Virus record (IMG/VR): IMGVR_UViG_3300032038_000005
Coordinates: 64,001 to 128,000 of that record
From: a virus
Lineage: Duplodnaviria > Caudoviricetes
Direction: 5' to 3' (one strand)
DNA length: 64,000 bases
Position 1 is the stretch's first letter. The number at the start of each line of letters is the position of its first letter. Positions 312 to 53,893 of this stretch are shown in pieces. The position numbers and the translations under genes were made by a program. The notes under the pieces are model-generated. The model had not been told where the DNA came from, searched no databases, and saw only the letters and a program-made list of their open reading frames with translations.

Positions 312-345
312 TCATATATCAGAGATATCAGATTGGGTCTAACAA

Positions 346-376
346 ACAAACTCCTTTCATTCGGGAGTTTGTTTTT
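346..376 (+). terminator. Intrinsic terminator
   Basis: AAACAAACTCC-loop-GGAGTTTGTTT followed by a T-rich tract. Confidence 0.7.
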
Positions 377-416
377 CTTGTGTTCTTTTTGTATGTTACC
401 GATTATTTTAAATCTT

Positions 417-444
417 CATATAAATATAATTAATATGATATGAA
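417..444 (+). promoter_or_regulatory. Putative phage early promoter motif, copy 1
   Basis: ATATAATTAATATGATATGAA, near-identical to 17891-17918 and 42968-42996, each upstream of an isolated + strand gene. Confidence 0.65.
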
Positions 445-453
445 TAAGTATCA

Positions 454-567
454 CTTATTACATCGACAAGATGTTCCATAACAGTATGGCATATCACATC
501 CACGTAGACTTCCATAAGGGTATCTAGTCAATATCCGTTTGCGGGATGCACACCAGGGGGTGTTATT
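454..567 (+). ncRNA. Conserved structured 5' leader RNA, copy 1
   Basis: Homologous to 17930-18049: shared GGCATATCACAT, AAGG, CT(A/T)GTCA loop and GGGATGCAC; compensatory changes in stems; RBS inside the hairpin ACACC-AGGG-GGTGT. Confidence 0.7.
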
Positions 568-1032
568 ATGGAAACAAAGACATTCACATATGGTAGCTAT
601 AAAGTTACCGTGGATCTCGAACCATTTAAGCGGTTCGATGGAGAAGAAGCCAGCGTCTTCTATGCCCATGTTAAATGGGTCGAAACAGCTGGATGGTGGT
701 CTTACAAGGGCACATTCGAGATGCATTTCTGGATCGATGGGAATACCGGAGATCTCTGGGGTTCCCGTGAATACACAGTGCAGCACCAGATCTCGAATTC
801 TCTGTCCATAAAATGGGGCTTTATCGAGCTCTGGATGCTCGACAGAGTTCCGGCACACATCATTGCTGGATTCATCCGGGGTGACGTTAAACAGTTCGAC
901 GAAGTTGTGACAACTCAGTCACAGCTCAATGAACTGATTGCGATCCTTGCCAATGCCGGGGAACATGATGCTGAGGTTATCCTCATGAATCATTTCGCAG
1001 GCAGGTTTGGACCGCCGGACCTCACACTCTGA
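568..1032 (+). CDS. Hypothetical (likely early) protein, 154 aa
   Basis: ATG with GGGGGTG RBS; flanked by conserved leader and trailer. Confidence 0.8.
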   Translation: METKTFTYGSYKVTVDLEPFKRFDGEEASVFYAHVKWVETAGWWSYKGTFEMHFWIDGNTGDLWGSREYTVQHQISNSLSIKWGFIELWMLDRVPAHIIAGFIRGDVKQFDEVVTTQSQLNELIAILANAGEHDAEVILMNHFAGRFGPPDLTL

Positions 1033-1039
1033 TGAAATG

Positions 1040-1112
1040 AATAACCGGGGGAGATCTCTGGGAGCTTGCTGTTTGTCGGCCCGACGCTCCATTCTCCCTC
1101 GGTTATTTTTTT
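1040..1112 (+). terminator. Conserved structured 3' element/terminator, copy 1
   Basis: AATAACCGGGGGAGA...TCTCCCTCGGTTATT plus T-tract, enclosing the core GGAGCTTGCTGTTTGTCGGCCCGACGCTCC; homologous to 18510-18585. Confidence 0.7.
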
Positions 1113-17747: not shown

Positions 17748-17852
17748 ATCCTTATTCTCCTTTACTATAAATTTGGTTTTGTATTAGAATCTATGGAATC
17801 GGATATAGAGCCTAAACAATTATAATTTTGTGTATTATAAGATACTATATTT

Positions 17853-17874
17853 GAACGCCCCATATGGGGCGTTC
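17853..17874. repeat. GCCCCATATGGGGC palindrome between divergent units
   Basis: GAACGCCCC-ATAT-GGGGCGTTC. Confidence 0.75.
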
Positions 17875-17890
17875 TATCATTTTGATTTTT

Positions 17891-17918
17891 CATATATATA
17901 TAATTAATATGATATGAA
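17891..17918 (+). promoter_or_regulatory. Putative phage early promoter motif, copy 2
   Basis: CATATATATATAATTAATATGATATGAA. Confidence 0.65.
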
Positions 17919-17929
17919 GAAGTGAAATG

Positions 17930-18049
17930 CTTCTTACATCTCGTCCCAGAGGTGGTTCCTATACTGTTAGGCATATCACATTCACTTGGGCATTGAACTA
18001 AGGCGACTTGTCATCGTCAGTCTAAGGGATGCACCGTGGAGGTGATTTT
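17930..18049 (+). ncRNA. Conserved structured 5' leader RNA, copy 2
   Basis: Homologous to 454-567 with covarying stems; RBS GGAGGTG inside the hairpin CACC-GTGGA-GGTG. Confidence 0.7.
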
Positions 18050-18499
18050 ATGTTCGATTATCTCAACCCCTATCTGTTCGGGGACAAAGAACAGGATGAT
18101 GTGCCGGAGGCTGTGCCTACTCCGACGCAGCAGAACCCCAGCATCAACTTCAACGTTAATGCTGAGGCGGTAACTGCCTTAGTTAGCGGGTTGGTGGCCA
18201 TTGCCGGCGCCTTTGCGAAAGCGAAGGCACAGGTACCCGCTGCACCGGCAGCACCCGCTGCACCGGCAGCACCCGCTGCTGATGACAACCTCCGTCAGGA
18301 GGTAGCCCAGCTGCAGTCTGGAATGAAATATCTCATTCAGCGGCAGGCAACCGCTGACAGAGATGCAGCCTACGATGCCGCAGAAAAAGCCTTCCAGGCA
18401 GCTGTGACAAAAGACCCCTCCAAAGCAATGGAGGCACTGGCTGGGTACAATGCAGCACGCAAGGCCGCTGACGAAGTCTACCACAAGTTGGTAGGCTAA
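18050..18499 (+). CDS. Ala/Pro-rich hypothetical (likely early) protein
   Basis: GGAGGTG RBS; hydrophobic segment, (PAA)n linker and helical C-terminus; visibly more GC-rich than its flanks. Confidence 0.8.
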   Translation: MFDYLNPYLFGDKEQDDVPEAVPTPTQQNPSINFNVNAEAVTALVSGLVAIAGAFAKAKAQVPAAPAAPAAPAAPAADDNLRQEVAQLQSGMKYLIQRQATADRDAAYDAAEKAFQAAVTKDPSKAMEALAGYNAARKAADEVYHKLVG

Positions 18500-18509
18500 G
18501 TCAAAACAT

Positions 18510-18585
18510 AATAACCGGGAGCGTTCCGTTCGGGAGCATGCTGATGTCGGCCTGACGCTCCCATTTGCTCCCGGTTATTTTTTTT
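18510..18585 (+). terminator. Conserved structured 3' element/terminator, copy 2
   Basis: AATAACCGGGAGCG...TGCTCCCGGTTATT plus T-tract, enclosing the core GGGAGCATGCTGATGTCGGCCTGACGCTCCC. Confidence 0.7.
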
Positions 18586-19689: not shown

Positions 19690-21213
19690 TCACTCCATCT
19701 TTGTTAAACCATATAATCCATTCAAACATTCAATTTCAATTGGAAACATGGTTCGTCCTTCCATACGAATATTGTATAATTTAGATCTCATTAGCTTTTC
19801 TGCTTGTTGGTTTGCTTCTTCTGACCAGATACCAACTGATTTAACAGTATCTCCATCATAGTCACCACCGATCGCTTTCAAACGAGAATTGGATGGTGTT
19901 AAGGTATCAGCAAATAATGTGGAGACTTTCATGTGGCCCAATGACGGATCTACAACTGGATAGTTCTTAAAGGTTTCACCTTGCCATTGCATTTCCGTTG
20001 TTTGAATGGTGGATAATAAGACGGGATAGGTGAAGAATGCTCCATAGTGATCACCCATGGGATACCGTACCGTATAGCACATCTTTCCTGCATCAATGAT
20101 TCCTCTTCGGCAACATATAAAAATTGCATCAGTTAGTGTCAACGGACGAATCTGACGCTGTTGGATTTTCACATCAAATCCATCAAAGATAATGGGTTTG
20201 GTTTGATCGGGATCTAAATACATAATATGAAAACGAGCACCGGGATTCATTTTATAGATTTTTACCAATCTTGCAATTTCCTCATCATCATAAATATTTG
20301 CCAAATCTTCCGAATTGACTTCCTCTGGGTTTGGATGAATTTGTTGAATATTGGAATAAGAGAAGAATTGTTTCATTTGAAATTTGATGAACGGGTCAAA
20401 CATTGTGACGAGTGTATGCATTGGATATCCCGTGTGATAGATACCAATCTCGGGATTGTCTGTATTATACTTTGGACCAGAGATTACGTTTCTTGCTGCA
20501 AATGATGTTGTCTTGGACATGAGATGCTGTTGAAAGAATCCCGTTTTCGCAGAAACAAGATTGTTGATATACTCATAAATTTGAATGGCAAAATTCTGGA
20601 ATTTACAATAAACTTGATACACATCATTTGTTGTCGTATGTGAGGTGATAGACTTTAATCCCAAGATTCCCATATACATCGTATTCAATTCACTTTTTAC
20701 TTGTCGGCCATTTCGTTCACCGATCTGTCTCATGTTGGGAGGGGACACCAGAATCTTATCATTGAACAATAACTTCTTTGGTGTTTTTGTCAAGATATCC
20801 ATATTGTCTTGAGAACGGGTATTCAATGCTTCTTTGAGATTAATCTTATCCCAAATATTATATAAGTCAACCAATCCACAATATTTCCCATTATCTGGAT
20901 TTGGTTTTAAAATACCATCTTCTGTCAAATCACATCTGGTTTCTGCATATGCCAATTTCTTAATAATACCACCAGATCTCATGATAATGGTTTTTGCCAC
21001 ATTGGGATTGAAAATATGAATTGGTAATTTAATATATCCACAACGATATTCTCGTTCATTATTGGTTTGACCAAAGACTTCTTCTGAGAATAAACCTTGT
21101 GGATGAAACTGATTCTCCGTTAGATAGATACGGGATGAAGTGACTTCTTTTAAATCATTGACCTTGATGGCTTGGTCAATATCATATAATCCTTGAATCT
21201 TCATTTGATTCAT
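19690..21213 (-). CDS. Phage RNA polymerase beta' subunit, N-terminal plus catalytic part (probably virion RNAP, phiKZ gp180-like)
   Basis: GLFSEEVFG, GYIKLP, VSPPNMR, RYPMGDH and catalytic GGDYDGD; start moved to the GAAAGGAG RBS (21213 or 21204). Confidence 0.9.
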   Translation of the reverse strand: MNQMKIQGLYDIDQAIKVNDLKEVTSSRIYLTENQFHPQGLFSEEVFGQTNNEREYRCGYIKLPIHIFNPNVAKTIIMRSGGIIKKLAYAETRCDLTEDGILKPNPDNGKYCGLVDLYNIWDKINLKEALNTRSQDNMDILTKTPKKLLFNDKILVSPPNMRQIGERNGRQVKSELNTMYMGILGLKSITSHTTTNDVYQVYCKFQNFAIQIYEYINNLVSAKTGFFQQHLMSKTTSFAARNVISGPKYNTDNPEIGIYHTGYPMHTLVTMFDPFIKFQMKQFFSYSNIQQIHPNPEEVNSEDLANIYDDEEIARLVKIYKMNPGARFHIMYLDPDQTKPIIFDGFDVKIQQRQIRPLTLTDAIFICCRRGIIDAGKMCYTVRYPMGDHYGAFFTYPVLLSTIQTTEMQWQGETFKNYPVVDPSLGHMKVSTLFADTLTPSNSRLKAIGGDYDGDTVKSVGIWSEEANQQAEKLMRSKLYNIRMEGRTMFPIEIECLNGLYGLTKME

Positions 21214-21268
21214 ACTCCTTTCTTCAAGTAAAGTATTTACGAAAACGTTTGAAACAATATAAAATGGG

Positions 21269-21293
21269 GGGTGGGGGGCATTGCCCCCCACCC
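21269..21293. terminator. GC-rich hairpin (palindrome family)
   Basis: GGGTGGGGGGCA-T-TGCCCCCCACCC with a T-tract on the minus strand. Confidence 0.6.
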
Positions 21294-21498
21294 AAATCAA
21301 AAAGAAAGGAAAAATTAGTATCCCATATTGCAAGTTCGGAAACAATATGGGATGAGGATTGGAAAGTAAAAATGTCAGTGCACTCAACGGCATTTGAGTG
21401 AAGTTCATCCATGAACCTATTATCATGTTACATGTGGATCATTTTAAATTCTGATGATCGACAAAATGCTAAAAAATTAATTTGAGGAGATTCTTATT

Positions 21499-24999: not shown

Positions 25000-27018
25000 A
25001 TGAACTTTAACACAGACACAGATGTGAATGAATCCCGTTTCGCCGACATTCGTCAGTATCAGGAGATTACCTCTCCCGATATTATCTACGAACTGTTGGG
25101 AGACATTATCATTCTGAACCGCTATCGTCAGAGAGAACATTATGACGAACTGTATGAACGCGTGGTAGATGTTGCTGTATGTTGCTGGAATGTCCATGTG
25201 AACCCTGATGACAAAGACAGCGATGTGCTCCAGCATACACCTATCAAGTTCAAAGTGGATATTGACGACATCCAGACGTATGCCATCCCGCTGAATCGCT
25301 TCATGATGTCCATGGCATTTATCCGTGCGATTCTTCCGTACCTCGACCGCGTGAATCTGAACGACTTCATTCTCCACAAATTCATGTCGGAGAAAGACCG
25401 TGTGGAAATCCAGAACAGAATCGTGGAAGTGCTTCGTGGTCAGGGTCTCACCATCAAAGAGATTCAGGTTATCATGGCACGTATGTCATTAGACCTGAAA
25501 GAACAGACACTGGTATTTGGCCAAGCTGACATGCAAATCTTCTCTGCGGAGAATTTGTTCCTCGACCATTATATGGCATCGGAGATTGTTCGCGACATCA
25601 ACAATACGGAATATCCACCGGATATGCAGACTGCCGATATTGTCGAGGAGAATGCAAAGAAATACAAGATTCTGGAAAAAGAAATGATGGAACGTGGTAA
25701 TCCGTTCTTCATCGACTCCAAGTATGCCAAGATTGTCAAGCCGAAGCAGATGGAAGAATTGTATATCAACTTCTCTCAGATTCCGGATGGTAAAGAGATT
25801 ATTCCCATCATCATGAACGGTAATGGCTTCAAGGCCGGTTATCATGACTTGGAAGTGTTCTATGGTGGTGCGATTGCTGCGAAAGTGCCAGACTTGATGA
25901 ATGATAAGTGGATGGGTGATGCGGGATACTTCTCAAGAAACTTGATGATTCTCACATACGGGACAATCAGTAAGACGGTATATGATTGCGGCTCTCGTAA
26001 TCTCATTCCGATTACAATTGATGAGACAGCTGCTCGTATGATGAACGGTCGTTATTATCAGAGAAGCAAGCATGATGGAATCTTGAGAGTCTTCCATAAG
26101 GATGACAAACGCCTGATGGGTAAGACATTATGGTTCCGCTCACCTTGTACCTGTAATCTGAATGAAGATTGTTGTCATGTCTGCTATGGCACAATCGCAT
26201 TGCAAGTTGGTCAACTGGAAGGTGGATTCATCTATACAACAGAATTGATGACATCAAGAGTTGGTCAGAATATCTTGTCTGCGAAACATCTGCTCAAAAC
26301 CGATGCGGAGAAAATCGACTTCTCTTCCAACTTCGAAAAATGGTTTGTGCTCAATTCATCAACCGTATATCCCAGAGATGAGAAGAAGTTTGATATCTAT
26401 ATTCGTGAAGACTATCATGAGACATCCTCTGAGAGTGTCACATTCTATTGCGGAAAAGACATGGAGGAAGTCACCATCGGACATTATTCTGACGTCGCCA
26501 TTCCGGATGATATTCTGTCCAAGGGTAAGAAAGTGGAGATTGATGACGTGGCCTATATCAAGATTTCCTCGTTCAAGATTCTGGAGAGTGGTGGAGAGCT
26601 TTGTAATATCACACCTATCAACATCTCCATCATTGCTCGTTATATGGATATCATGAAATTCTTCACATCTAATGCGGCTAAGATGGACAAAGTAGAAGAT
26701 GCTGTTGTGGCACTGATGAGATTGCTGGATGCCACATTCATTCCAATCCTGTCTACACATGGAGAAATTATCATCGGACATTTGCTGCGTTCGATTGACA
26801 GTAAGGTGAAGAGACCCAACTGGTTGAATGAAGATGAACCGTATCAGATTCTCCCGTTGAAGACAGCACTGGGTTCTTCTGAGAGTGCAACCACCTCGTT
26901 GGCATTTGAGAGAGCCGGCAATCAGTTGCTGTCAAGTATCTTCGACTTGAGAAATGACATTAATCGTGTTGGTGTACGTTCTTTCTCCGACTATATGTTC
27001 GGGGAATCTAATCTGTAA
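25000..27018 (+). CDS. Phage RNA polymerase beta' subunit, C-terminal part (probably non-virion)
   Basis: Bridge helix DAGYFSRNL, DCGS, Zn site RSPCTC...CHVCYG, trigger loop GQNILSAKH and LAFE; no DxDGD. Confidence 0.85.
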   Translation: MNFNTDTDVNESRFADIRQYQEITSPDIIYELLGDIIILNRYRQREHYDELYERVVDVAVCCWNVHVNPDDKDSDVLQHTPIKFKVDIDDIQTYAIPLNRFMMSMAFIRAILPYLDRVNLNDFILHKFMSEKDRVEIQNRIVEVLRGQGLTIKEIQVIMARMSLDLKEQTLVFGQADMQIFSAENLFLDHYMASEIVRDINNTEYPPDMQTADIVEENAKKYKILEKEMMERGNPFFIDSKYAKIVKPKQMEELYINFSQIPDGKEIIPIIMNGNGFKAGYHDLEVFYGGAIAAKVPDLMNDKWMGDAGYFSRNLMILTYGTISKTVYDCGSRNLIPITIDETAARMMNGRYYQRSKHDGILRVFHKDDKRLMGKTLWFRSPCTCNLNEDCCHVCYGTIALQVGQLEGGFIYTTELMTSRVGQNILSAKHLLKTDAEKIDFSSNFEKWFVLNSSTVYPRDEKKFDIYIREDYHETSSESVTFYCGKDMEEVTIGHYSDVAIPDDILSKGKKVEIDDVAYIKISSFKILESGGELCNITPINISIIARYMDIMKFFTSNAAKMDKVEDAVVALMRLLDATFIPILSTHGEIIIGHLLRSIDSKVKRPNWLNEDEPYQILPLKTALGSSESATTSLAFERAGNQLLSSIFDLRNDINRVGVRSFSDYMFGESNL

Positions 27019-42950: not shown

Positions 42951-42967
42951 CTATTTATCTTAATTTT

Positions 42968-42996
42968 CGTATATATAATATTAATATGATATGAAA
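42968..42996 (+). promoter_or_regulatory. Putative phage early promoter motif, copy 3
   Basis: CGTATATATAATATTAATATGATATGAAA. Confidence 0.6.
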
Positions 42997-43041
42997 ATAT
43001 CAAAATGATTTATCTGTAATGATGAAAGGAGAGAAATCCAT

Positions 43042-43728
43042 ATGACAGAAAATCAAAGAATTACCAAAATACTGGATGACACAGTTCAGCATGGTGGTAA
43101 AATTGTCATTGGTACAGATTGGCACCTGTATCAATATGATAAGAAAACTGGGGTTATCGCAGTCAACCCCACTGCCAAAGCCAACATTCAGTTGGCAAAG
43201 AGCCTCTTGTCCGAGAGAGACCTGTTTCTGTTCCTCGGCGATATTGCTGACGCCGAATATAATGGAGTAGAAGCAGAAGCCAATATCAGAGATATCTTTG
43301 CACAGTTTAACTGTAAGAAGATTCTGGTATTAGGAAATAACGACAGAATCGGAAATGATGATTTACCGGAAGAACGCAGAACTGGTTTCTACGAAACAGT
43401 TTTCGATTATGTTGTTACATGCTTCGTTTGGAGGAGCATGTTATTCAGTCATTGCTCCATGGCCGGTAATGATGAAACATTAAACATACATGGCCATATG
43501 CACCGGATGGGAACGGCAACCCGGAATATCACCTACTATGGTAGGTTTGATAATCAAGTGAATGTTTGTGCACTCGGACGTACAACAACACTTGATGAAG
43601 TATTAAAATTATCCACGTACTGGAGACACATGGCGGGAGTATCCGAAGGGCAGGAGAAGCCCGGATTCACGTCATGGTTAATCTACCAGGCGTGGAAAGA
43701 ATATCGAAAAATCAAGAATGCCGGGTAA
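43042..43728 (+). CDS. Calcineurin-like metallophosphoesterase
   Basis: TDWH, LGD, GNND, FSH and IHGHMH motifs. Confidence 0.85.
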   Translation: MTENQRITKILDDTVQHGGKIVIGTDWHLYQYDKKTGVIAVNPTAKANIQLAKSLLSERDLFLFLGDIADAEYNGVEAEANIRDIFAQFNCKKILVLGNNDRIGNDDLPEERRTGFYETVFDYVVTCFVWRSMLFSHCSMAGNDETLNIHGHMHRMGTATRNITYYGRFDNQVNVCALGRTTTLDEVLKLSTYWRHMAGVSEGQEKPGFTSWLIYQAWKEYRKIKNAG

Positions 43729-43753: not shown

Positions 43754-46700
43754 TTAGCCTTTGGCTAATCTTTGGATTGATGTTGGAATATCATTATTTG
43801 GAAACAATGACCCATTGTGATTTGAACCTGTCGGAACAGTTGTTGTCTTTTTAGAATCTGTGATACGATCCATCTTGTCAATAATTTGTGTCAACAACTC
43901 TTCGACTTGTACTGCACGAACATTGTACGTATGATTCAACACTCGTTCCATTATGATGTCTTGGTTCTCATCCGATTTCTGAATGATGATATGATTATTT
44001 GTAATCACGGGTGCAGTTTCATCCGGCGTTTTCCATGTTCCCGTTTCATTATCATAATATCCCCATGCCATCGTATCAGTAGAACCATTTGTGGGTACAA
44101 TATCAGACGGATATGTCTTATTGGAAACATATTGTGAAACTTTCGATTCATCGATTTCTGGAATATCAATGCTTGACACGTCACCGCTACCAGCAATCGC
44201 CGAATTAACGACATTCAAAATATCATTTGTTCTATCGAAGATGTAATTGCCAGGACAAGACTTTTCACCTTTCTTCTTGAACATCCTATGATATGTCCAT
44301 GTACCATCTGTACCGTCGCCATTATAACCATCACCAGTTGCAGTATAGCTGAATCCAGGAATATTATTTCTTTTTGCGACATCGACCGTTAAGTTGATTG
44401 CAGACTGTAACGCAGCATCGGAAATTGCCCATGTCTCGTCACCATTCTGTTTCCATCTCTGATATTCACCGGGTGCATTTGAAATCTCCAAAGTTACGGC
44501 TTGTTCATCATTCGTTTTGGAAGATGATGTAAAGGAACCCAATCCTTCATCAATCCATCGACCAATCTTACCATCATTGGTAATTCCATAGTTAACAGAA
44601 ACTTTCGCATCTGTTCTGCCTTTGAAGGTGTTCTCCAATGAACTTAAATCATCAGAAGAACCTGCCCATGTATGCCATGTGACTTTCTTGATTCCATTTG
44701 GTCTTGTATAATGATAATTTGCAACAGAAGTATGCATATCTTGCGCCAATCCAGAGTTTGTATATCCAGGAACAGAAGAAGCGGCAGGAGCTGCAGTTCG
44801 TGTGATACCTCTCACATTAATTCCCGGACCACCTGGAAGTGTTCCTGTTGACATTAATGAGGATGCAACAGGACGAATCACATATGCATACGCAGAATCT
44901 GAGCCATTGTATTCCAATGTTGGTAAACTCTTTGCGGCAGTTGCCATGTCTGTACCACTCAACATACTCTTTGCAGCACCTTGTGTTGCCACAATCGCAT
45001 CATCATGTCCAAAGTTCCAACCCTTGAATGAACCATCTACCATTCCATATGCGATTTCACCATGTCCATTACGAACGACGATATCACCAGGTTGTACGGT
45101 TGATGCGTTTACTTCAGAACCCCATTTCAATGCTTCGAAGTCAGGAGAATTGGTTCCATCTTTCTTAATAGGATTCTTTGAATTACTTGCCGCAGACACC
45201 AAGGCATTGCTTTGTACATTGCCAATGTCATATCCTAAATAATCCAATGGGAATTGAATTAGACCGGTGCAGTCGGGTCGACCATGAATGGTTTTACCAC
45301 CCAATTCAATTGTTGTATTACCCCCCATATGATAAGTATGCAGTCCAGCTTCATCTGTGGCTTTGACTGTCTTGTTGAGTGTGTTAATCCATGTTCCAGG
45401 ATTCAATCCACCACCAGTTCCGGATGTAGATGTTGCCAAACCACTAGATGGCACGTAGTTGTACATACCACCAATAGAACCAGCAGCGAAATTACTGAAT
45501 GAGAATCCATTCCCCATTGAGTTTCTGGAGATTCCCGTAAATCCCAAATCTGACATGTTCCAGTTCAATGCTGTTGGTGTTTTACCAATGTTCATACCAG
45601 GATTCATCGTACCGTTAGATGCTGGTAAATATGAAGATGTCACAGATGTTCCATTTGGAATTGTTACTCCAGACCCATCCCAATTCTTGAATTCATCATA
45701 TACTTCTTGTGCATATCGTTTTCGTTGAGAGCTGGCTTGGCCATTACATCTCTCAAATTTATTCATCCAATCAGTTGCTGCACCAACAACATTTGTTGCA
45801 TCCTTTACAATCATCGCATTTTTTTCTGAGGATTCCAATTCGGATCTCATGAAATCCAGTTGCATCGGTAGATCAGCAATGGATGTACCTTTCTCTTTTG
45901 AGAACTTCATTAAGTTGACGGAACGGTCACCGAGCCATTGTGCAATACCATAGGGATCATTTTTACCAATTGGCCATGATGTCGCATTATCAATCGTTTG
46001 CGTCACTTCAAGGTTTGTGCTATCTGGAGCAGAGTGATCTTTTCCACCACGGCTGGCAAGATATACCGCCATCGGATAGAATCCGGATTCTGCTTTCAGG
46101 TTACCCATGACACCGGCAGTACCTTCTTTTGTGAATCCCATGGTCTCTGTCAAGTATTTCCAAATCACTTTCTTATTATAAGCTTGATCGGAATATTGTT
46201 CATAAGCAGTTGTTCCACCTGACCCTTCACCAATCCGAGATTCATCAATTTTCTCTTCTGACTGGTACTCATAACTGGATTCATTTTGTGGTGATGCAGA
46301 ATATAATTTGAAATAGGTTAATGGATTGATGTGTTCATCTTCTGGTGATTTGATTTCGTAATGTACATGTTCACCGTGAGAATCACCGGTATTACCAATG
46401 ACACCGAGTGACACGCCACCATCAATGGCATCGCCAATTTTAACCGTAGGATTATTGCGCATATGTGCATATCGATGACGATATCCGGCGGTATCCATAA
46501 ATTCAACGGAATTTCCCCAACCACCATCATCGACAGTGTTGTATGGGGATTCCGGATTACCTTTGCCAGCATATCGAACGTCTGTGATCGTACCACCTGT
46601 AATCGCACGCAAATCGGCTTTACCACTTGTCATGATGGACTTTGGATATGCCAAAATGTCAACACCAGTATGCTTATCACCAGTAGATCCTTCACCAGTT

Positions 46701-49700
46701 GTGTCTGGTGTATCTCGTTTGGTATACCAGTTTCCATTCTTGGAGAAGACATATTCCGTTTCCGCATTTGATGTCTTCCGGAAGAATTCATGAACGGGAG
46801 ATTTCGATTGTGATTTTCCGCCATCTTCTGTAATATTTGTTTCAGTAATTTCTGGTGTGTAATCCATAAACATAATTGCACCACCATCGGACACAAACTT
46901 TCCTTCGTAAGTCTTATCATAAGACGAGATGTTGTTTGTTGAAGTTGTCGTGCCGTTAAGAATACCACCTTGCCATGTGCCAGTTTCATTATTATAGCCA
47001 CCATATGTGGTAGAGCCAGCACCTTCTTGTGCATCGACCATCGTGTTGTATTTCATGGCTTCGATCATGGTCACATTCTCAGAAGCAGCTTTGTTCATCC
47101 ACTTTCTGCGAATATGTTCTGTCCAGCCATTCTTCATTCTGGTCTGATAAGCATCATCACTTTCTCCCTGGTTCTTCGGATTTTCATTCATGTATAATTG
47201 GAATGCAATATCTTCATACGCATCATATTGCTCATTACCGATTTGATTACGCAACTTGTTTTCTTTTTCCTTTTCTTCTTCGATTTCCAATTGAGAAACT
47301 TTTTCTTCTTCATTTGTCAATGAGAAGAAATTAAGGATCTTGCCAAATGTACCAGCTAATGCGGACATGACTTGTTTAAATCCTGATAATGCAGAAGAAC
47401 CTTTTCCAGTGGCACTTGGAGTGGAGACACCGGCAGATTCTGGCATGTACTTCTTATCAGTTGATATATAACCAGTTGCACCACCGGGGTTGGAAGTATA
47501 TGTGAATGAACCTGATGTTGCATCATAGTAGCCATAATTTCCAGTTGTGGTGTCAAATGAGGAACCATCGTCCATCTTATTAACGAGGTCATTATCAATA
47601 TCTGCCGCTGTTTGTTTTTTACCATGTTTATTCAGTTCAGCACCGACAATCTGTTTGAGCACATCTGATGGAATATCACTCTTACTTGATGCTGTGCGTG
47701 TTTTTGGTAATTTCGCACGCAACCATTCTGCCAATCCAGCAGTTGGAGAAGCTGTTCCATCTTGGCATGCATAGGAATATGCTTCCATTAATTCTTGATA
47801 GAAATCTGGGTATCTTGTTTTAATGGTACTGATCCAATCTTGTACGACACCTTTTGTGATCTCAAATGTTTCCCATTGCGTAGTAGCCCTTGCTGATGTG
47901 GCTGATGTTGAAGTTGTTGACGAAGATTTGTTGTATTTATTACATAGATCAGTCCACCAACTTCTGAATCCTGATGAAGAATGCGGATATTTCTTATTAA
48001 TAGGATTGACTCCGTTTAATTGCTGAGAAGCAGAAGTATATACATTAGATTCTGTATTGAGATAATTCGAATAAGATCCAGTATAAAGATTTGGTTGGGC
48101 CTGCTTTAGTCTACCAGCCATTGTTTGCCATGTAATGTTTTCTTTCTTCATTTCCGCTTTAACAGTATCCTGATCCCATTGTCCAGTATAATGATTATCT
48201 TCATTACTGTGTGTTATATCATATAATTTTTCACCATTTGCGACATCTTGATTCCATGCAGCTTTTAGATTGTTCCATGCATTTGCTGCTTGTGATCTTA
48301 AGCTATTCCTTCCATAGTTCTTTTCATACCAATCTGGTCCGGATATATCGAACCATTTAACAATCTGGGTTCCAGATAACCCGAGACCACCCAATGCAAC
48401 TGATTTAGTTGCATACTTATACCAAGCATCCCTCTGTTCTTGTGTCAAATCGTTATAACTGATATCTCCAGATCCATAAATATCAAATAATCCAGTGGAA
48501 ATAGCAGGGACATCTCCAGAACCATATAAGCCAACAACAGATCCGGAAATCAAATCTCCTGTGGATCTTCTTTCAACACGTCCAGTCAATGGATTAGATA
48601 CCAAAGAAGTACCACCAGAAGAACCAACCACATTGACATAGTGTGTGTTTCCTTTGTTAGTGCCAAATCCAGTTCCAGATCCCACAAGTGTAATTGGGTT
48701 ATTCGGTGTTGCTCGTTTCAAGGAGGCATTTGTTACACCACCAACTTGATATCCCATTCCCATAGAAGAAGCGGTGTTCAAGAAACCACCAACACTTGTT
48801 CCACGAGAAGTAGAATAGTTTCCAGATGAGGCCATATGTCCTGCTAATGCGCGAGCACTCACATGACCACCGCGTCTGTTGGCAGCGTCCGCCAGTGCAA
48901 TTGGACCACATCCACGTTGACTCATGTTTAGATAAGAACCATAAGAACCTTGTGAATTTCCAGAGCCATATAATCCATTTGCAGCATATTCACGATATCC
49001 AGATGAATTCGTATTTACAGCTGGAACATTGGAAGCAGAAGATGTTGGTGTATCATTTATCACTTGTGAACTTGTATCGGTTGTTGATTTATCATTTGCT
49101 GATCTATCATTGCTTTCTTCCGTTGTTGTCTGATCGGATATCTGTGAAGTAGCATTTCCTGTATCAGTTGCTGCTTCAGGATATAGAGATGACATATAGA
49201 AATACTTTCCAGTCAATCGTTTTGAAATGGAATTTGCTTGTGATTGTGAGCCTTCTGAAGTGATGACCATGCCATTTGCAGCGATACCAGCGGAAGTTTG
49301 GAATAATGCATTACCAGCGTCCGCTTGTCCAGATGCAATCAATTCCAAGCCAATACCAGCAAGAATTTCACCAACACCAAATTGCAAAGCACCAAGTGTC
49401 ATCTTATTGATGTTGAGATTTTCTTCCAGATTCGGTGCGATGGAACTTCTCACTTTTGATGTCAATGGGATTAAGACATCATTCTTTGTTTCTTTTGTCT
49501 CTTTGACATTTTCTACCAGAGCTTCCATCATCGGTTCGTATACTTTCTTATCGATCTCTTCAATGAATGGTCCAAATTTTCCAACAACAACTTTCGCAAT
49601 ACTTTTCATAAACTTTGCAGTTGTTGCAGATTGCTTTATCATTTCTCGATAAACAGAATCACCCATATCCTCTGATTGTACGGGCGGTGTATCACCAGAA

Positions 49701-52700
49701 CCAACTGTTTCCATGGATGCACCATTGGATTCTGGTACGGATGGAATTGATGGTGTTACCGTAATCGGAGATTCATCAGTGTCCTCGCTCTCATTGTCAG
49801 ATGACTCATTGGAGGTACCATTGATGAGTGATTCCACCTTTTCTGCACCAGTCGATGCAAGATCACTACCGCGGTCAATTAAAGCTTGTCCTTTTTGTTG
49901 GAGTTCATCACCTTTCTTAATCTTGAAGAATGATAAGAGCTCGCCAATTGCCACTTCTATATTACCAAAAAACTCTGTCGCACGTCCAGCAAGATACTCA
50001 ACTGTGCCGCCAAGTCCCTCGATGATTGGGACGATCGCCTTGTCTAATACCCATGAAATTGCTTTTAGCGCAGGAATTGCAACCATATTAATCAAAGACA
50101 TGGTCGCAGGTAAGATTCCCACAATCGCACCCACAATCGATCCAATGGCCGTCCCAAGTGGTTCGAGTAATGCGAAGAATTGAGTAGCAAATTCACCAAA
50201 CACATCGGCTAACGCATTTACTGAACTACTAATAGAGGAGATGAAGTTGCCAATTGATTTTAAAGATTTAACAACAACATTTCCAAGTTGTTTTATAAGA
50301 GGCATTCCAGTTTTTACAAGTAATTCTGTCGGCTTCTTTAATGCATTCAATCCTACTTTAAATACATTTTTTACATAGTTGATCATCGCCTTACCAGCAG
50401 CAGATGCTACTAACAATGTGCCAACAATCTTAGTGACACCTAATGCAATTGTCGCAATGGCTTTACCGGGAGACATGGCACCCGAAATCAATCCTGTTAC
50501 ACCACTTCCAACATCTTTTGCTCCTGATTTCAAACCTTTCGTAATCAGAGGAACAACAACTTTTGTCAATAATAGTTTTAATGGACCCATGAACGCTGAG
50601 ACAAATACTTTGGCAGCTGTTTTTAGAACACCCTTAAGTACTGCACCAGCTGCTGCTGCTTTACCGAAAATCAATTTTGCAATAGGGTTATTATGCTTCT
50701 TTTCTGCTTCTGTTTCTGCAATTCTGGCATTGTCTTTTATACTAGCAATTGTATTTTTTGCGGCATTTTTTGTAAATTGCCAAGCGCCTGTCAATGCTTT
50801 TCCAACCTTTGAATTTTTTATTAACATACCAAGTCTTCGAATTTGTGTCATTTCTGCATCCGAGATTTGACTGTCGTTATTGATTGCAGATTGACCAATC
50901 GCATTCATTGTTCCAACGAGTGCTTCTGTCTCCTCTGGTGAGGCACCCTCTTCACTCTCAGTATTCGACCGTTTGTTTTGATATTGCTCTTTGGCCTCCT
51001 CATAGGTCTGAGGTTTACTCTGTTCTGCTTCTTCTTTTTGGCGTTTCTTCTCCTCTTTTTCCTCTTGCTTTTGTTTTCTCCATTCTTCCCAAGTTTTTGC
51101 TTGTTCTGCTTCTTCTTCTTTACGTCTCTTTTCCTCTTCCTCATAATGTTTATTTCGTGCCTCTCGACGCCTCTGAATTGCTTTGATTTTACTGTCATAA
51201 GCCTCATCTTCTGCTTCTTTTTTCTTCAGAATATTAAGCTCTTTCAGGAGACGTTTTTTTTGCAATGACATGATTTCACTTTCCAATTCTTCCATTGTTT
51301 CAAAGAAAGTGTCATCTGTCATTTTCCCTAACATTGTTGCATGTCGCTTTGCGATCATTGCGAGATCTTGCACACCACCAAACAATTGTTTGCCGCCAAG
51401 CTTTTGTAACCGTTCTGGTGTAAGTTCTTCAGAGTCAAAGGACTCAAATACTCCAGAAGTAGAATCCATTTCTCCAATTGGCAGTTTGGCCTTTGAGAGA
51501 ACCTCTGTTAAAAACTTTTCACGTTGTTTGGAACTGAGGGTACTTGTACCATCTCCACCGAAGACATTGAAAATGGAACGAGGCATTGGAAGAATATTCC
51601 CGGATCCCGTCTCCTCCATAATCTCAGGTGGTGGTACTTCAGGTGGTTCTGCAGGCTCGGGTGGTTGTTGTGACTGTGGGGGTGTTCCTCCTAACAAAGT
51701 AATGATTTGATCCATTCTACTGAATAATTGTGAATGGAATAATGCAGCAGTATCTTGTGTGGCAATCGATCCATCCCTGTTTTTCTTTTCTGGCATGATA
51801 CCTGTGATATGACTAAATAAAGAAGACTTTCCTTCCACACGATTTTCTTGCTGTATGTCCGTTTCGCTATAACGTTTGTCATGTGCACGTTGACGTTGAT
51901 TCAGGCTTAATCCACCATTTTCGCCAGGCTCATCCAAAGCTTTCTCGAAAAGCTCATTTACATGTGCTTCAAATTGTTCTCCTTTTCCTTTCCATCCTTT
52001 TGCTTTTTCTTGTTCAGAGATCTTTTCTCTGAGATCATGTCTTTCTTTATCTAATGCTCTTTGTTGATCATATTCCTCTTTATGTTCTGATTTAATTCCC
52101 ATGATCATATCCAAAGTTGTTACTTGGTGTTGCCTACCCATTCCTCTGCTTTCTAATTGATTTTTCACATCCTCATTATCTTGCCAACCCTCTTTTGTTC
52201 GACGATTGATTTCATCTCGCATTTTACTTAATGCATTATTTTGACCGGTGATACCACGATGTTTTTTATCATCGTCCAACATTTCCATTTTAGCGATCTT
52301 GAGATAATAATCCGATATATTTTCATCCCAATCTAATTGTCTTTTTTCTCTTGCATTAGGAGAAGTCCAATTTTTGAATTCTTTTGTGATATATGACCAG
52401 AATTCATCCGACTTCAAATCTTTATCAATGACAACTTTTGGATTGATATCCTGAAAGTACCATGCTGCAAGTGTCGTAAACAAATCATCAGCATCTGCTT
52501 GATCTTTGTTAATCTTCTCTTTCATTTTTTTTAGAGAAGCATTATCATCATCTTTCGATTGAAACGCCTTATTCATTCTATTGCTGATATCACGACCGAA
52601 TGCACTTCCTTGATATGCTGAAATATTATGCATATTACGAATTTCGTTTTCTCGTTCTCCGTCTTTGTATTCCTTCACATGCCCTTTCATGGAAATGCCA

Positions 52701-53893
52701 TAGGTCTTTCCAGTCAATGCACCAGCAATGATTTTTAAATAATCAGGAATAATTTCAACGATAGAAGTACGTACAATTCCATCGAATTTTGCGGCATCTT
52801 TTGTATATTGTGATTCGGATTCCCATCCCTCGGATAATGATCTTCGTTTGATACCGGATGAACTTTTTAGCATATCTGAAATGAGACTGCCAAATATGCC
52901 ACCTTTGCTCAACAGTTCTTCCAATTTCTTTGGCATTGCAATATCCCCAAAGAAATTATGTTGGATATTTCCGACTGATGCATTAATGTCATTACCAATT
53001 GAATCAATGGATTGCCCCTTTAATCGAGCTGCTAATTTATTAATGAATTTATCTTCATCATTTTCATTTACACCGAATACACTTCCGATTCCCGCAACAC
53101 CTTTGCTCAAAGCATCACCGAATTTTCCAGACTCTTTCAATGATGTCATGCCCAATACTGTTGATACCAGCTCTACCGGAGAGCTTGCAAACAGTTGTAA
53201 CATTTGTGAAGCATTTGAAATCCCGGAACTTGCTTGGTTCTTCATATGCTCAAACCATGAACCTAATGTGATTCTACCATTTGAACCGACGATGCCATTG
53301 GCTTGTTCCGCACGATATTCTTCTTCTTGTTCCACTTTGGATACAACCGCTTTTGTGACCAGATCCATTTTTTCTGAAATGGCATTCAATGATGTATTGA
53401 CAGCATTTATCGCTGTTACCATCTTTGAAACACCATCATTCAGATTGGATGAGATTTCAGCAGCACTAATCATGGAGACTTCTGCTTGTTTTGCACCAAT
53501 CTGATACATGGCATTCACTTGACCACGCGCGATGTCTTTCATGCCATCTTGATCTAAGACTTTCGATGTTGTTTCTTCCTCAGATGAAGTGGAATTATCA
53601 TCTCCAATTTGATAGCCGGCATCAAAATCAGAGTCATTATTGTCCGTCAAATCCCACTCATCGGTTGCACCAGATCGATCATAAAACCAATCCGATATCC
53701 TTTTACCGCCGTTTGCCTTAATATCATTCACAACATCAGATACTTTTTCTTTCCCCTGATGTAACGTTGAATGAATTTTTTTGACATCATCCACAAGCTG
53801 TGTAATATTGGAAGAGTAATCATCCAGTAAATATTTTTTACCAGCTTCTTTTCCAATCCAAGCAATTTGTTTCACAATTTTACTTGTAGCCAT
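43754..53893 (-). CDS. Tape measure/tail-associated multi-domain lysin (C39-like, M23, phage tail lysozyme, NlpC/P60-like, amidase_2)
   Basis: Helical and hydrophobic N-half; GCGPIALAD/HYVNV; HTGVD/HVHYE; GNLKAESG/GIAQW; DCTGLI/PGDIVVRNGH; WHTWAG/LEISN/YH...SCPG. Confidence 0.85.
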   Translation of the reverse strand: MATSKIVKQIAWIGKEAGKKYLLDDYSSNITQLVDDVKKIHSTLHQGKEKVSDVVNDIKANGGKRISDWFYDRSGATDEWDLTDNNDSDFDAGYQIGDDNSTSSEEETTSKVLDQDGMKDIARGQVNAMYQIGAKQAEVSMISAAEISSNLNDGVSKMVTAINAVNTSLNAISEKMDLVTKAVVSKVEQEEEYRAEQANGIVGSNGRITLGSWFEHMKNQASSGISNASQMLQLFASSPVELVSTVLGMTSLKESGKFGDALSKGVAGIGSVFGVNENDEDKFINKLAARLKGQSIDSIGNDINASVGNIQHNFFGDIAMPKKLEELLSKGGIFGSLISDMLKSSSGIKRRSLSEGWESESQYTKDAAKFDGIVRTSIVEIIPDYLKIIAGALTGKTYGISMKGHVKEYKDGERENEIRNMHNISAYQGSAFGRDISNRMNKAFQSKDDDNASLKKMKEKINKDQADADDLFTTLAAWYFQDINPKVVIDKDLKSDEFWSYITKEFKNWTSPNAREKRQLDWDENISDYYLKIAKMEMLDDDKKHRGITGQNNALSKMRDEINRRTKEGWQDNEDVKNQLESRGMGRQHQVTTLDMIMGIKSEHKEEYDQQRALDKERHDLREKISEQEKAKGWKGKGEQFEAHVNELFEKALDEPGENGGLSLNQRQRAHDKRYSETDIQQENRVEGKSSLFSHITGIMPEKKNRDGSIATQDTAALFHSQLFSRMDQIITLLGGTPPQSQQPPEPAEPPEVPPPEIMEETGSGNILPMPRSIFNVFGGDGTSTLSSKQREKFLTEVLSKAKLPIGEMDSTSGVFESFDSEELTPERLQKLGGKQLFGGVQDLAMIAKRHATMLGKMTDDTFFETMEELESEIMSLQKKRLLKELNILKKKEAEDEAYDSKIKAIQRRREARNKHYEEEEKRRKEEEAEQAKTWEEWRKQKQEEKEEKKRQKEEAEQSKPQTYEEAKEQYQNKRSNTESEEGASPEETEALVGTMNAIGQSAINNDSQISDAEMTQIRRLGMLIKNSKVGKALTGAWQFTKNAAKNTIASIKDNARIAETEAEKKHNNPIAKLIFGKAAAAGAVLKGVLKTAAKVFVSAFMGPLKLLLTKVVVPLITKGLKSGAKDVGSGVTGLISGAMSPGKAIATIALGVTKIVGTLLVASAAGKAMINYVKNVFKVGLNALKKPTELLVKTGMPLIKQLGNVVVKSLKSIGNFISSISSSVNALADVFGEFATQFFALLEPLGTAIGSIVGAIVGILPATMSLINMVAIPALKAISWVLDKAIVPIIEGLGGTVEYLAGRATEFFGNIEVAIGELLSFFKIKKGDELQQKGQALIDRGSDLASTGAEKVESLINGTSNESSDNESEDTDESPITVTPSIPSVPESNGASMETVGSGDTPPVQSEDMGDSVYREMIKQSATTAKFMKSIAKVVVGKFGPFIEEIDKKVYEPMMEALVENVKETKETKNDVLIPLTSKVRSSIAPNLEENLNINKMTLGALQFGVGEILAGIGLELIASGQADAGNALFQTSAGIAANGMVITSEGSQSQANSISKRLTGKYFYMSSLYPEAATDTGNATSQISDQTTTEESNDRSANDKSTTDTSSQVINDTPTSSASNVPAVNTNSSGYREYAANGLYGSGNSQGSYGSYLNMSQRGCGPIALADAANRRGGHVSARALAGHMASSGNYSTSRGTSVGGFLNTASSMGMGYQVGGVTNASLKRATPNNPITLVGSGTGFGTNKGNTHYVNVVGSSGGTSLVSNPLTGRVERRSTGDLISGSVVGLYGSGDVPAISTGLFDIYGSGDISYNDLTQEQRDAWYKYATKSVALGGLGLSGTQIVKWFDISGPDWYEKNYGRNSLRSQAANAWNNLKAAWNQDVANGEKLYDITHSNEDNHYTGQWDQDTVKAEMKKENITWQTMAGRLKQAQPNLYTGSYSNYLNTESNVYTSASQQLNGVNPINKKYPHSSSGFRSWWTDLCNKYNKSSSTTSTSATSARATTQWETFEITKGVVQDWISTIKTRYPDFYQELMEAYSYACQDGTASPTAGLAEWLRAKLPKTRTASSKSDIPSDVLKQIVGAELNKHGKKQTAADIDNDLVNKMDDGSSFDTTTGNYGYYDATSGSFTYTSNPGGATGYISTDKKYMPESAGVSTPSATGKGSSALSGFKQVMSALAGTFGKILNFFSLTNEEEKVSQLEIEEEKEKENKLRNQIGNEQYDAYEDIAFQLYMNENPKNQGESDDAYQTRMKNGWTEHIRRKWMNKAASENVTMIEAMKYNTMVDAQEGAGSTTYGGYNNETGTWQGGILNGTTTSTNNISSYDKTYEGKFVSDGGAIMFMDYTPEITETNITEDGGKSQSKSPVHEFFRKTSNAETEYVFSKNGNWYTKRDTPDTTGEGSTGDKHTGVDILAYPKSIMTSGKADLRAITGGTITDVRYAGKGNPESPYNTVDDGGWGNSVEFMDTAGYRHRYAHMRNNPTVKIGDAIDGGVSLGVIGNTGDSHGEHVHYEIKSPEDEHINPLTYFKLYSASPQNESSYEYQSEEKIDESRIGEGSGGTTAYEQYSDQAYNKKVIWKYLTETMGFTKEGTAGVMGNLKAESGFYPMAVYLASRGGKDHSAPDSTNLEVTQTIDNATSWPIGKNDPYGIAQWLGDRSVNLMKFSKEKGTSIADLPMQLDFMRSELESSEKNAMIVKDATNVVGAATDWMNKFERCNGQASSQRKRYAQEVYDEFKNWDGSGVTIPNGTSVTSSYLPASNGTMNPGMNIGKTPTALNWNMSDLGFTGISRNSMGNGFSFSNFAAGSIGGMYNYVPSSGLATSTSGTGGGLNPGTWINTLNKTVKATDEAGLHTYHMGGNTTIELGGKTIHGRPDCTGLIQFPLDYLGYDIGNVQSNALVSAASNSKNPIKKDGTNSPDFEALKWGSEVNASTVQPGDIVVRNGHGEIAYGMVDGSFKGWNFGHDDAIVATQGAAKSMLSGTDMATAAKSLPTLEYNGSDSAYAYVIRPVASSLMSTGTLPGGPGINVRGITRTAAPAASSVPGYTNSGLAQDMHTSVANYHYTRPNGIKKVTWHTWAGSSDDLSSLENTFKGRTDAKVSVNYGITNDGKIGRWIDEGLGSFTSSSKTNDEQAVTLEISNAPGEYQRWKQNGDETWAISDAALQSAINLTVDVAKRNNIPGFSYTATGDGYNGDGTDGTWTYHRMFKKKGEKSCPGNYIFDRTNDILNVVNSAIAGSGDVSSIDIPEIDESKVSQYVSNKTYPSDIVPTNGSTDTMAWGYYDNETGTWKTPDETAPVITNNHIIIQKSDENQDIIMERVLNHTYNVRAVQVEELLTQIIDKMDRITDSKKTTTVPTGSNHNGSLFPNNDIPTSIQRLAKG

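Follow-up and report, generated by a model that had tools for sequence, protein, structure and literature searches.

The closest described relatives of the locus reported here come from several fields. In the moron concept (Hendrix/Juhala), an extra single gene with its own promoter and terminator lies between the backbone genes of a tailed phage. Leaders that sequester the Shine-Dalgarno (SD) sequence include translational riboswitches, RNA thermometers and protein operators such as the E. coli thrS leader, and 5'-terminal stabilizer hairpins are known from the ompA leader and, in Bacillus, from SP82 and ermC; a hairpin at +1 is a classical form of mRNA 5'-end protection. In T4-type phages, PeSL (promoter-early stem-loop) units consist of an early promoter and stem-loops that flank orphan genes and undergo modular shuffling (PMC2839356; PMC4122927). 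In jumbo phages that encode their own polymerases, the early motifs are AT-rich and centered near -10 (PMC7598289), and the AR9 early consensus is AAATATATATTAT-(6N)-G, with the start 6 nt downstream of the element (PMC5312081). Typical 5' UTRs of phiKZ measure 31-40 nt (PMC8244752), while those of AR9 reach 491 nt and carry predicted, unexplained motifs (PMC5312081; PMC7598289).

We analyzed a 64,000-nt stretch of DNA (the window), bases 64001-128000 of a 202-kb IMG/VR virus record with an estimated completeness of 75%. The one public run found to contain this stretch is a DNA run labelled bovine gut metagenome; no RNA run was listed for it. A near-identical copy of the first cassette described below lies on a contig (L109) from JGI dataset 3300031867, and, judging by IMG sample numbers, that dataset and the related IMG/VR records are probably of cattle rumen origin. 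Because the phage encodes a large terminase together with two beta-like proteins and one beta'-like RNA polymerase protein, we regard it as a jumbo phage that transcribes with its own multisubunit polymerases. The two beta-like genes, which are separate, are consistent with two such enzymes, one virion and one non-virion. The window also encodes a 3379-aa protein (43754-53893, minus strand) that has peptidase and endolysin-like domains near its C-terminus; it is probably a very large virion protein, or one of the tape-measure type, carrying lytic domains.

Two cassettes in the window have the same order of parts, namely an upstream terminator, an AT-rich promoter motif, a leader, a G+C-rich orphan open reading frame and a compound terminator (Table 1). 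They have the promoter, the leader and the 3' terminator in common, but not the ORF. Genome-wide, the promoter motif occurs about six times and the compound terminator three times; the latter, a unit of about 75 nt, shows 2 two-sided compensations among its genome copies (n = 3). The hairpin upstream of cassette 2 is predicted from its sequence to insulate that cassette against upstream transcription. A third cassette outside the window (genome 6340-7312; L188:91-1063) has this promoter and compound terminator too, but its leader is another one, about 100 nt long and rich in hairpins, and its ORF encodes 243 aa with an HEVGH (HExxH) motif.

Table 1. Positions, in the 64,000-nt window, of the parts of both cassettes and of other loci referred to in the text.
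Feature	Cassette 2 or single locus (strand)	Cassette 1 (strand)	Description
Upstream terminator-like hairpin	17853-17874 (+)	344-374 (+)	Cassette 2: 9-bp GC-rich stem, then T-rich tail
Promoter motif	17876-17916 (+)	402-442 (+)	Conserved AT-rich, repeat family D2; core ATTAATATGATAT (cassette 2); cassette 1 has a roughly 40-nt AT-rich block, nearly identical to that of cassette 2
P0 hairpin	17917-17935 (+)	443-459	8 bp, triloop, at predicted mRNA 5' end; hand-built consensus
P1 hairpin	17937-17942 with 17949-17954 (+)	461-473	6 bp in copy 2, 4 bp in copy 1
P2 hairpin	17958-17961 with 17968-17971 (+)	476-489	2 two-sided compensations
Invariant linker GGCATATCACAT	17970-17981 (+)	488-499	12 nt, mostly single-stranded in consensus fold
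P3-P4-P5 rod	17979-18031 (+)	497-548	5+7+5 bp, 10-nt asymmetric internal loop ending AAG
P3	17979-17983 with 18027-18031 (+)		5 bp
P4	17985-17991 with 18020-18026 (+)		7 bp
P5	18002-18006 with 18014-18018 (+)		5 bp, 7-nt loop CTTGTCA (CUUGUCA, YUNR type)
P6 hairpin CACC/GGUG	18032-18035 with 18041-18044 (+)	550-563	Covers 3' half of SD
Shine-Dalgarno GGAGGTGA	18038-18045 (+)		Followed by spacer to ATG at 18050
Cargo gene	18050-18499 (+)	568-1032 (+)	Cassette 2: 149-aa Ala/Pro-rich orphan, one hydrophobic segment, G+C 52-57%; cassette 1: 154-aa orphan, G+C 49%
Compound terminator	18510-18585 (+)	1040-1112 (+)	Cassette 2: long outer stem, inner branch, T-run
Promoter motif with short unrelated leader	42953-43041 (+)		Promoter copy 42953-43000; ahead of phosphoesterase gene 43042-43728
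RNA polymerase beta-like genes (two, separate)	19690-21426 (-) and 25000-27018 (+)

The cargo genes stand out from the genome in base composition (49-57% G+C compared with 39%). The two ORFs, of 154 and 149 aa, have no detectable similarity to each other, and except for a 99% twin of ORF1 the cargo proteins gave no match in Pfam, PHROGs, homology searches or Atlas. A single-sequence AlphaFold model of ORF1 was unusable (pLDDT 47). Within cargo ORF 2, a direct nucleotide repeat at window 18206-18280 encodes (AAP)n beside the hydrophobic segment; the public DNA run has small insertions at 18252 and 18255, and the length of the repeat may vary.

The AT-rich motif is probably an early promoter for the virion RNA polymerase of the phage. 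We infer both this promoter class and a transcription start at about 17917 (443 in copy 1) from the analogy with AR9, and with the start placed in this way, hairpin P0 would begin at +1 and the whole element would be transcribed. A search for sigma-70 promoters found no consensus at copy 1 and only weak 9/12 matches at copy 2, none of them on the conserved motif. In low-depth contigs of the public DNA run, loose ends occur at the promoter core (17876 and 17910). In nearly every copy of the promoter, the 3' end of the core (GATATR) doubles as the 5' arm of an inverted repeat, and the 3' arm covaries with it. The repeat is found at window 437-459 and 17911-17935 and, just after the promoter core, in L174-L184, with GATATA-GAAA-TATATC and GATATG-N7-CATATC as examples; depending on the true start, it could be a 5'-terminal RNA hairpin, an operator palindrome or a promoter hairpin.

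The two leaders lie 17.5 kb apart (copy 2 at 17917-18049, about 133 nt; copy 1 at 443-567, about 125 nt) and have diverged, with 37 of the 115 ungapped columns differing (68% identity). In both, the structured element sits between the promoter motif and the ATG, the start being placed as above. The initial annotation had described a leader RNA in copy 2 from 17930 onward, with five stems (P1-P5), an AAG ahead of P5, an invariant linker and a final hairpin over the SD, and we found every one of these parts in both copies where it had put them. The element was nevertheless longer than described, beginning about 13 nt farther upstream with an extra hairpin, P0. The accompanying statement that loops and linkers are conserved was correct in part: the linker, the AAG and the P5 loop (C-U-N-G-U-C-A) are invariant between the copies even though the stems vary, but the loops of P1 and P2 vary. 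The P5 loop could pair with the 3' module through a UGAC complement, but this is present in just 2 of 3 modules, so such pairing is not conserved. We rejected a leader peptide, as the conserved 12-mer lies in different frames and the copies have no common start codon or reading frame; a minus-strand ORF at 17765-17974 is reduced to 13 codons in copy 1. A tRNA- or tmRNA-like element was likewise rejected, ARAGORN having found no tRNA or tmRNA, and no cloverleaf, in the window.

We compared the two copies pair by pair. RNAalifold run on both leaders returned P2, P3-P5 and the SD hairpin, a total of 27 pairs with 6 two-sided changes, 5 one-sided changes and no broken pair. Over the full consensus, which combines the RNAalifold result with our reading of P0 and P1, there were 39 pairs, of which 7 had two-sided and 7 one-sided changes and again none was broken. 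P0 contributes one two-sided compensation (U-A to G-C), and the P3-P4-P5 rod 4 two-sided and 5 one-sided changes with all of its pairs intact. When the 3' partners were slid by 1-3 columns, 31-48% of the pairs could form instead of 100%, and 0-1 two-sided changes were left.

Because the RNAalifold structure is derived from both sequences, we added a test in which the minimum free energy (MFE) fold of copy 1 by itself was mapped on copy 2 and compared with a null in which the substitutions were redistributed. On this fold copy 2 showed 6 two-sided compensations where the null gave 1.2 on average (P = 3e-4), and 7 pairs were broken where 13.5 were expected (P = 0.004), the covariation statistics being thin since they come from two independent sequences. 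The 7 broken pairs fall at helix fringes that only copy 1 has. Substitutions are at least as frequent in the stems (24 of 66 paired columns) as in the loops (13 of 49 unpaired), but those in the stems are compensated, which bears out the earlier observation that the stems vary while pairing is kept.

Structure that is kept while stem sequence varies would also suit a processing site, in which the 17-18-bp P3-P5 rod is a substrate for an RNase III-type or other endonuclease and the cut sets mRNA stability or frees the SD; in size and in the shape of its interrupted helix the rod resembles the processing hairpins of T7 and SP82 early mRNAs. However, its longest uninterrupted helix is 7 bp (P3 and P4 together make 12 bp across a 1-nt bulge), and a processing site would leave the invariant linker and loop unexplained. 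We consider this explanation very improbable.

The fold is also specific to one strand. It contains 3 G-U pairs in copy 1 and 7 in copy 2, and mirroring it on the antisense strand costs 3 and 10 kcal/mol, respectively; the consensus energy of copy 2 is -35.4 kcal/mol in the sense orientation and -25.6 kcal/mol for the antisense mirror. The G-U pairs and the loss of energy indicate that the fold belongs to the sense-strand RNA. Together with the compensatory changes, this upholds the claim of a functional sense-strand leader RNA, and we are fairly confident that the leader is a transcribed RNA whose structure is under selection.

We searched widely for further members of the family. In Rfam 15 no family reached its gathering score in the window, and relaxing the threshold to E<=10 for the two cassettes brought up no relevant match. 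A blastn search against 50,697 phage records detected no leader homolog beyond chance or coding matches, and pattern scans of IMG/VR with the linker, with the linker plus GGGATGCAC and with the 3' module yielded chance or coding matches only. Two pattern scans of JGI/ENA metagenomes found no homolog, the 82-nt matches among them representing a conserved coding region, and nhmmer found no leader in 35 related loci. A covariance model (R1) built from the two copies recovered copies 1 and 2 alone from the whole genome and no leader from the 35 related loci or from 14 whole related phage records, apart from one weak match (E = 1.8) in unrelated sequence. Given these negative searches, the family so far consists of the two paralogs and the near-identical copy-1 cassettes on contigs L108 and L109.

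Relatives with terminases 70-79% identical to that of this phage have the promoter at the same two genomic positions, before other small ORFs. Their leaders behind the shared promoter are different ones, hairpin-rich and 45 to about 240 nt long, and in other cassettes with this promoter, too, the core is immediately followed by a hairpin. Early-cassette leaders of the phage, and those of three or more relatives, share a second motif, namely a hairpin with the conserved loop UGAAUGCAUA(UAUA) and a covarying stem (CUACC/GGUAG, CUCAGG/CCUGAG, CAAGG/CCUUG) (L188:175-184, genome 6424; and, on the minus strand, L079 ~5660, L060 ~1329, L176 ~2863 and L183 ~310). This hairpin could be a protein-binding site.

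Signs of exchange are found at the cassettes themselves. In L108 and L109 the cassette is 97-98% identical over window 372-1112, while the upstream backbone is about 84% identical, and cargo gene 1 differs by 7 nt and 1 aa. The copy-1 cassette is mosaic, with 2 differences in the 5' 570 nt (0.35%) and 16 in the 3' 170 nt (about 9%). At L108:2791-2983, which corresponds to genome 7249-7440, an ENA contig joins the copy-1 terminator module to the downstream flank of the third cassette, and the joined sequence suggests a rearrangement at the terminator module. Mosaicism and this junction, the latter a single case, would fit recombination at or within cassettes.

This possible exchange raises the question of whether the flanks serve recombination rather than expression, either as homology arms of the PeSL kind or as folded single-stranded DNA sites for a recombinase, with the RNA fold incidental. 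The same flanks do surround unrelated ORFs, relatives carry other ORFs at the same two sites, and in L108 the junction falls at the 3' terminator of the copy-1 cassette. The leaders, however, are no more than 68% identical and their differences are compensatory, which argues for selection on structure and not on the sequence identity required for homologous recombination. Owing to its G-U pairs the fold is specific to one strand, the one that runs with the gene; the flanks are recognizable expression signals; and a search of the 75%-complete record yielded no Y1 (HUH) transposase. A recombination scaffold is therefore highly unlikely in our judgment. Integron attC sites and IS200-type ends were rejected, as their core motifs misfit and no Y1 transposase was found.

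The initial annotation had the SD buried in both copies, and the predictions agree: the SD of copy 2 has an unpaired probability of 0.10 (2nd percentile among 145 genes of the phage) and that of copy 1 one of 0.24 (14th percentile). The corresponding value for the phosphoesterase gene, which has a short leader behind the same promoter, is 0.66. The P6 hairpin itself is weak (-5.1 kcal/mol in copy 1 and -4.2 kcal/mol in copy 2) compared with the pairing of the SD to a 3'-end sequence of 16S rRNA, predicted at -13 to -18 kcal/mol, and for this reason we read P6 as a throttle and not as a lock. With P6 so weak beside the modeled SD-16S pairing, occlusion of the SD may matter little. We rejected an RNA thermometer, as the predicted accessibility of the SD rises only slightly between 25 and 50 C, from 0.28 to 0.40 in copy 1 and from 0.09 to 0.14 in copy 2.

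A second candidate pairing partner for the SD lies within the leader. The linker contains AUCAC, which is able to pair with GGUGAU of the SD and which we take to resemble the 3' end of 16S rRNA. Pairing between the linker region and the SD region is possible in both copies (-8.8 and -11.0 kcal/mol), but the copies differ in which state they prefer. In copy 1 no more than 2.4 kcal/mol separates the consensus fold from the MFE, and the linker-SD state is disfavored by 8.4 kcal/mol. In copy 2 the linker-SD state is favored by 3.7 kcal/mol and is the predicted MFE structure, which thus differs from the consensus (-41.0 kcal/mol versus -35.4 kcal/mol for the hand-built fold and -37.3 kcal/mol when only P3 is enforced). 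Since the preference is opposite in the two copies, a conserved two-state switch would be no more than a conjecture.

This result bears directly on the idea of a translational operator or switch, in which a trans factor bound at the linker and/or the P5 loop co-regulates both cassettes by shifting the leader between the P3-P5 fold, with the SD weakly covered, and linker-SD pairing, with the SD closed. An operator would account for a 12-nt linker and a P5 loop (CUNGUCA) that stay invariant while the stems vary, for the capacity of the linker region to reach the SD in both copies, including its place in the MFE of copy 2, and for the regulon-like occurrence of a common element before two unrelated genes. 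The opposite preferences of the two copies speak against it, as does the fact that there are only two targets and that the 14 related phage records gave no further copy, and we regard it as improbable.

The same energies, together with the database searches, led us to set aside a small-molecule riboswitch, one part of the reading in the initial annotation, in which the stems would make up an aptamer and a bound ligand would open or close the hairpin over the SD. In favor of this reading are the several stems of the leader, its conserved unpaired nucleotides and the predicted occlusion of its SD. But riboswitch aptamers are normally widespread, and here no Rfam class was matched even at E<=10 and the searches found no homolog outside one phage lineage. 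Moreover, the hairpins stand in series with one rod and share no conserved junction of several helices, the two orphan cargo genes are unrelated and suggest no metabolic theme, and the copies differ in their preference for the alternative linker-SD pairing. A small-molecule riboswitch is accordingly a very unlikely explanation.

On balance we favor, by a modest margin, the reading that the leader is the cis-acting 5' UTR of a one-gene early cassette that shields the 5' end and throttles translation. In this model the leader would act on its own mRNA: P0, at the predicted +1, would together with P1 shield the 5' end from 5'-end-dependent decay, while the P3-P4-P5 rod, with P6 directly abutting it, would keep the SD partly closed, so that the translation of strongly transcribed early genes would be throttled. 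That the leader acts in cis on translation and/or stability at all is, to us, only somewhat better than an even proposition; mRNA stabilization, translational throttling and any trans factor are roles that we infer from the predicted fold and its conservation. Points against the cis-acting leader include that the consensus is not the predicted MFE of copy 2 and that a purely constitutive role would not account for an unpaired 12-nt linker without a single change between copies whose stems have diverged by about a third.

It is possible, though rather doubtful, that a trans factor reads the leader. If there is one, the unpaired invariant linker and the YUNR-type P5 loop would be its likeliest contacts, whether it is a phage or host protein or an RNA. 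A more specific and still less probable version has the leader as a phage-specific RNA domain that is read by a dedicated early protein or small RNA and coordinates a small regulon of early mobile orphan genes, the cargo genes then possibly serving host takeover or anti-defense. Were this version true, leader and terminator would form a portable RNA frame, and any ORF slotted into it would at once come under its control.

The leader and its cassette matter for several reasons. Early-gene control in jumbo phages with their own RNA polymerases is largely unmapped, and here is a clean case of an early leader in which selection acts on how the RNA folds and not on its sequence. The same leader and terminator frame surrounds unrelated orphans, and relatives have different genes at these sites. 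Should the leader set the life span or translation of its mRNA, or be read by a factor, it would show how newly acquired phage genes become controlled and would offer a compact, portable expression module. The leader is an undescribed phage RNA element outside Rfam families; it adds one more undescribed RNA motif and is not evidence for a phage riboswitch.

Compared with known systems, the cassette is closest to a moron, with its single gene, its own promoter and terminator, its deviant G+C content and the different content of the site among close relatives. It departs from a moron in having a phage-specific AT-rich promoter, probably for the virion RNA polymerase, and in adding a long covarying leader and a conserved compound terminator that are reused around unrelated ORFs. 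Its likeness to PeSL lies in the repeated promoter and stem-loop unit that flanks orphan genes, and one possible exchange at the 3' module was observed. PeSL units, however, are short, have a sigma-70-type promoter, and use the stem-loop as a terminator or attenuator (PMC2839356; PMC4122927), whereas the structured part of the cassette is a multi-hairpin mRNA leader of 125-133 nt. With AR9-type phages the locus has in common an AT-rich early motif, a phage multisubunit RNA polymerase and a long 5' UTR with motifs, although the sequence of the promoter motif differs, the phage is known from uncultured sequence and its start is placed by analogy. As in SD-sequestering leaders, the SD is partly buried in a hairpin beside a larger structured domain. 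P5 superficially resembles an anticodon arm, having a 5-bp stem, a 7-nt loop, U at position 2 and NGU in the middle, but its loop has C where tRNAs carry a purine at position 37. Like the 5'-terminal stabilizers, both leader copies start with a hairpin at the predicted +1; one hairpin suffices for the stabilizers, whereas the leader is a multi-domain structure of 130 nt. The whole unit is thus a moron with PeSL-like reuse of its regulatory flanks, to which a promoter of the phage-polymerase type and a long covarying leader are added.
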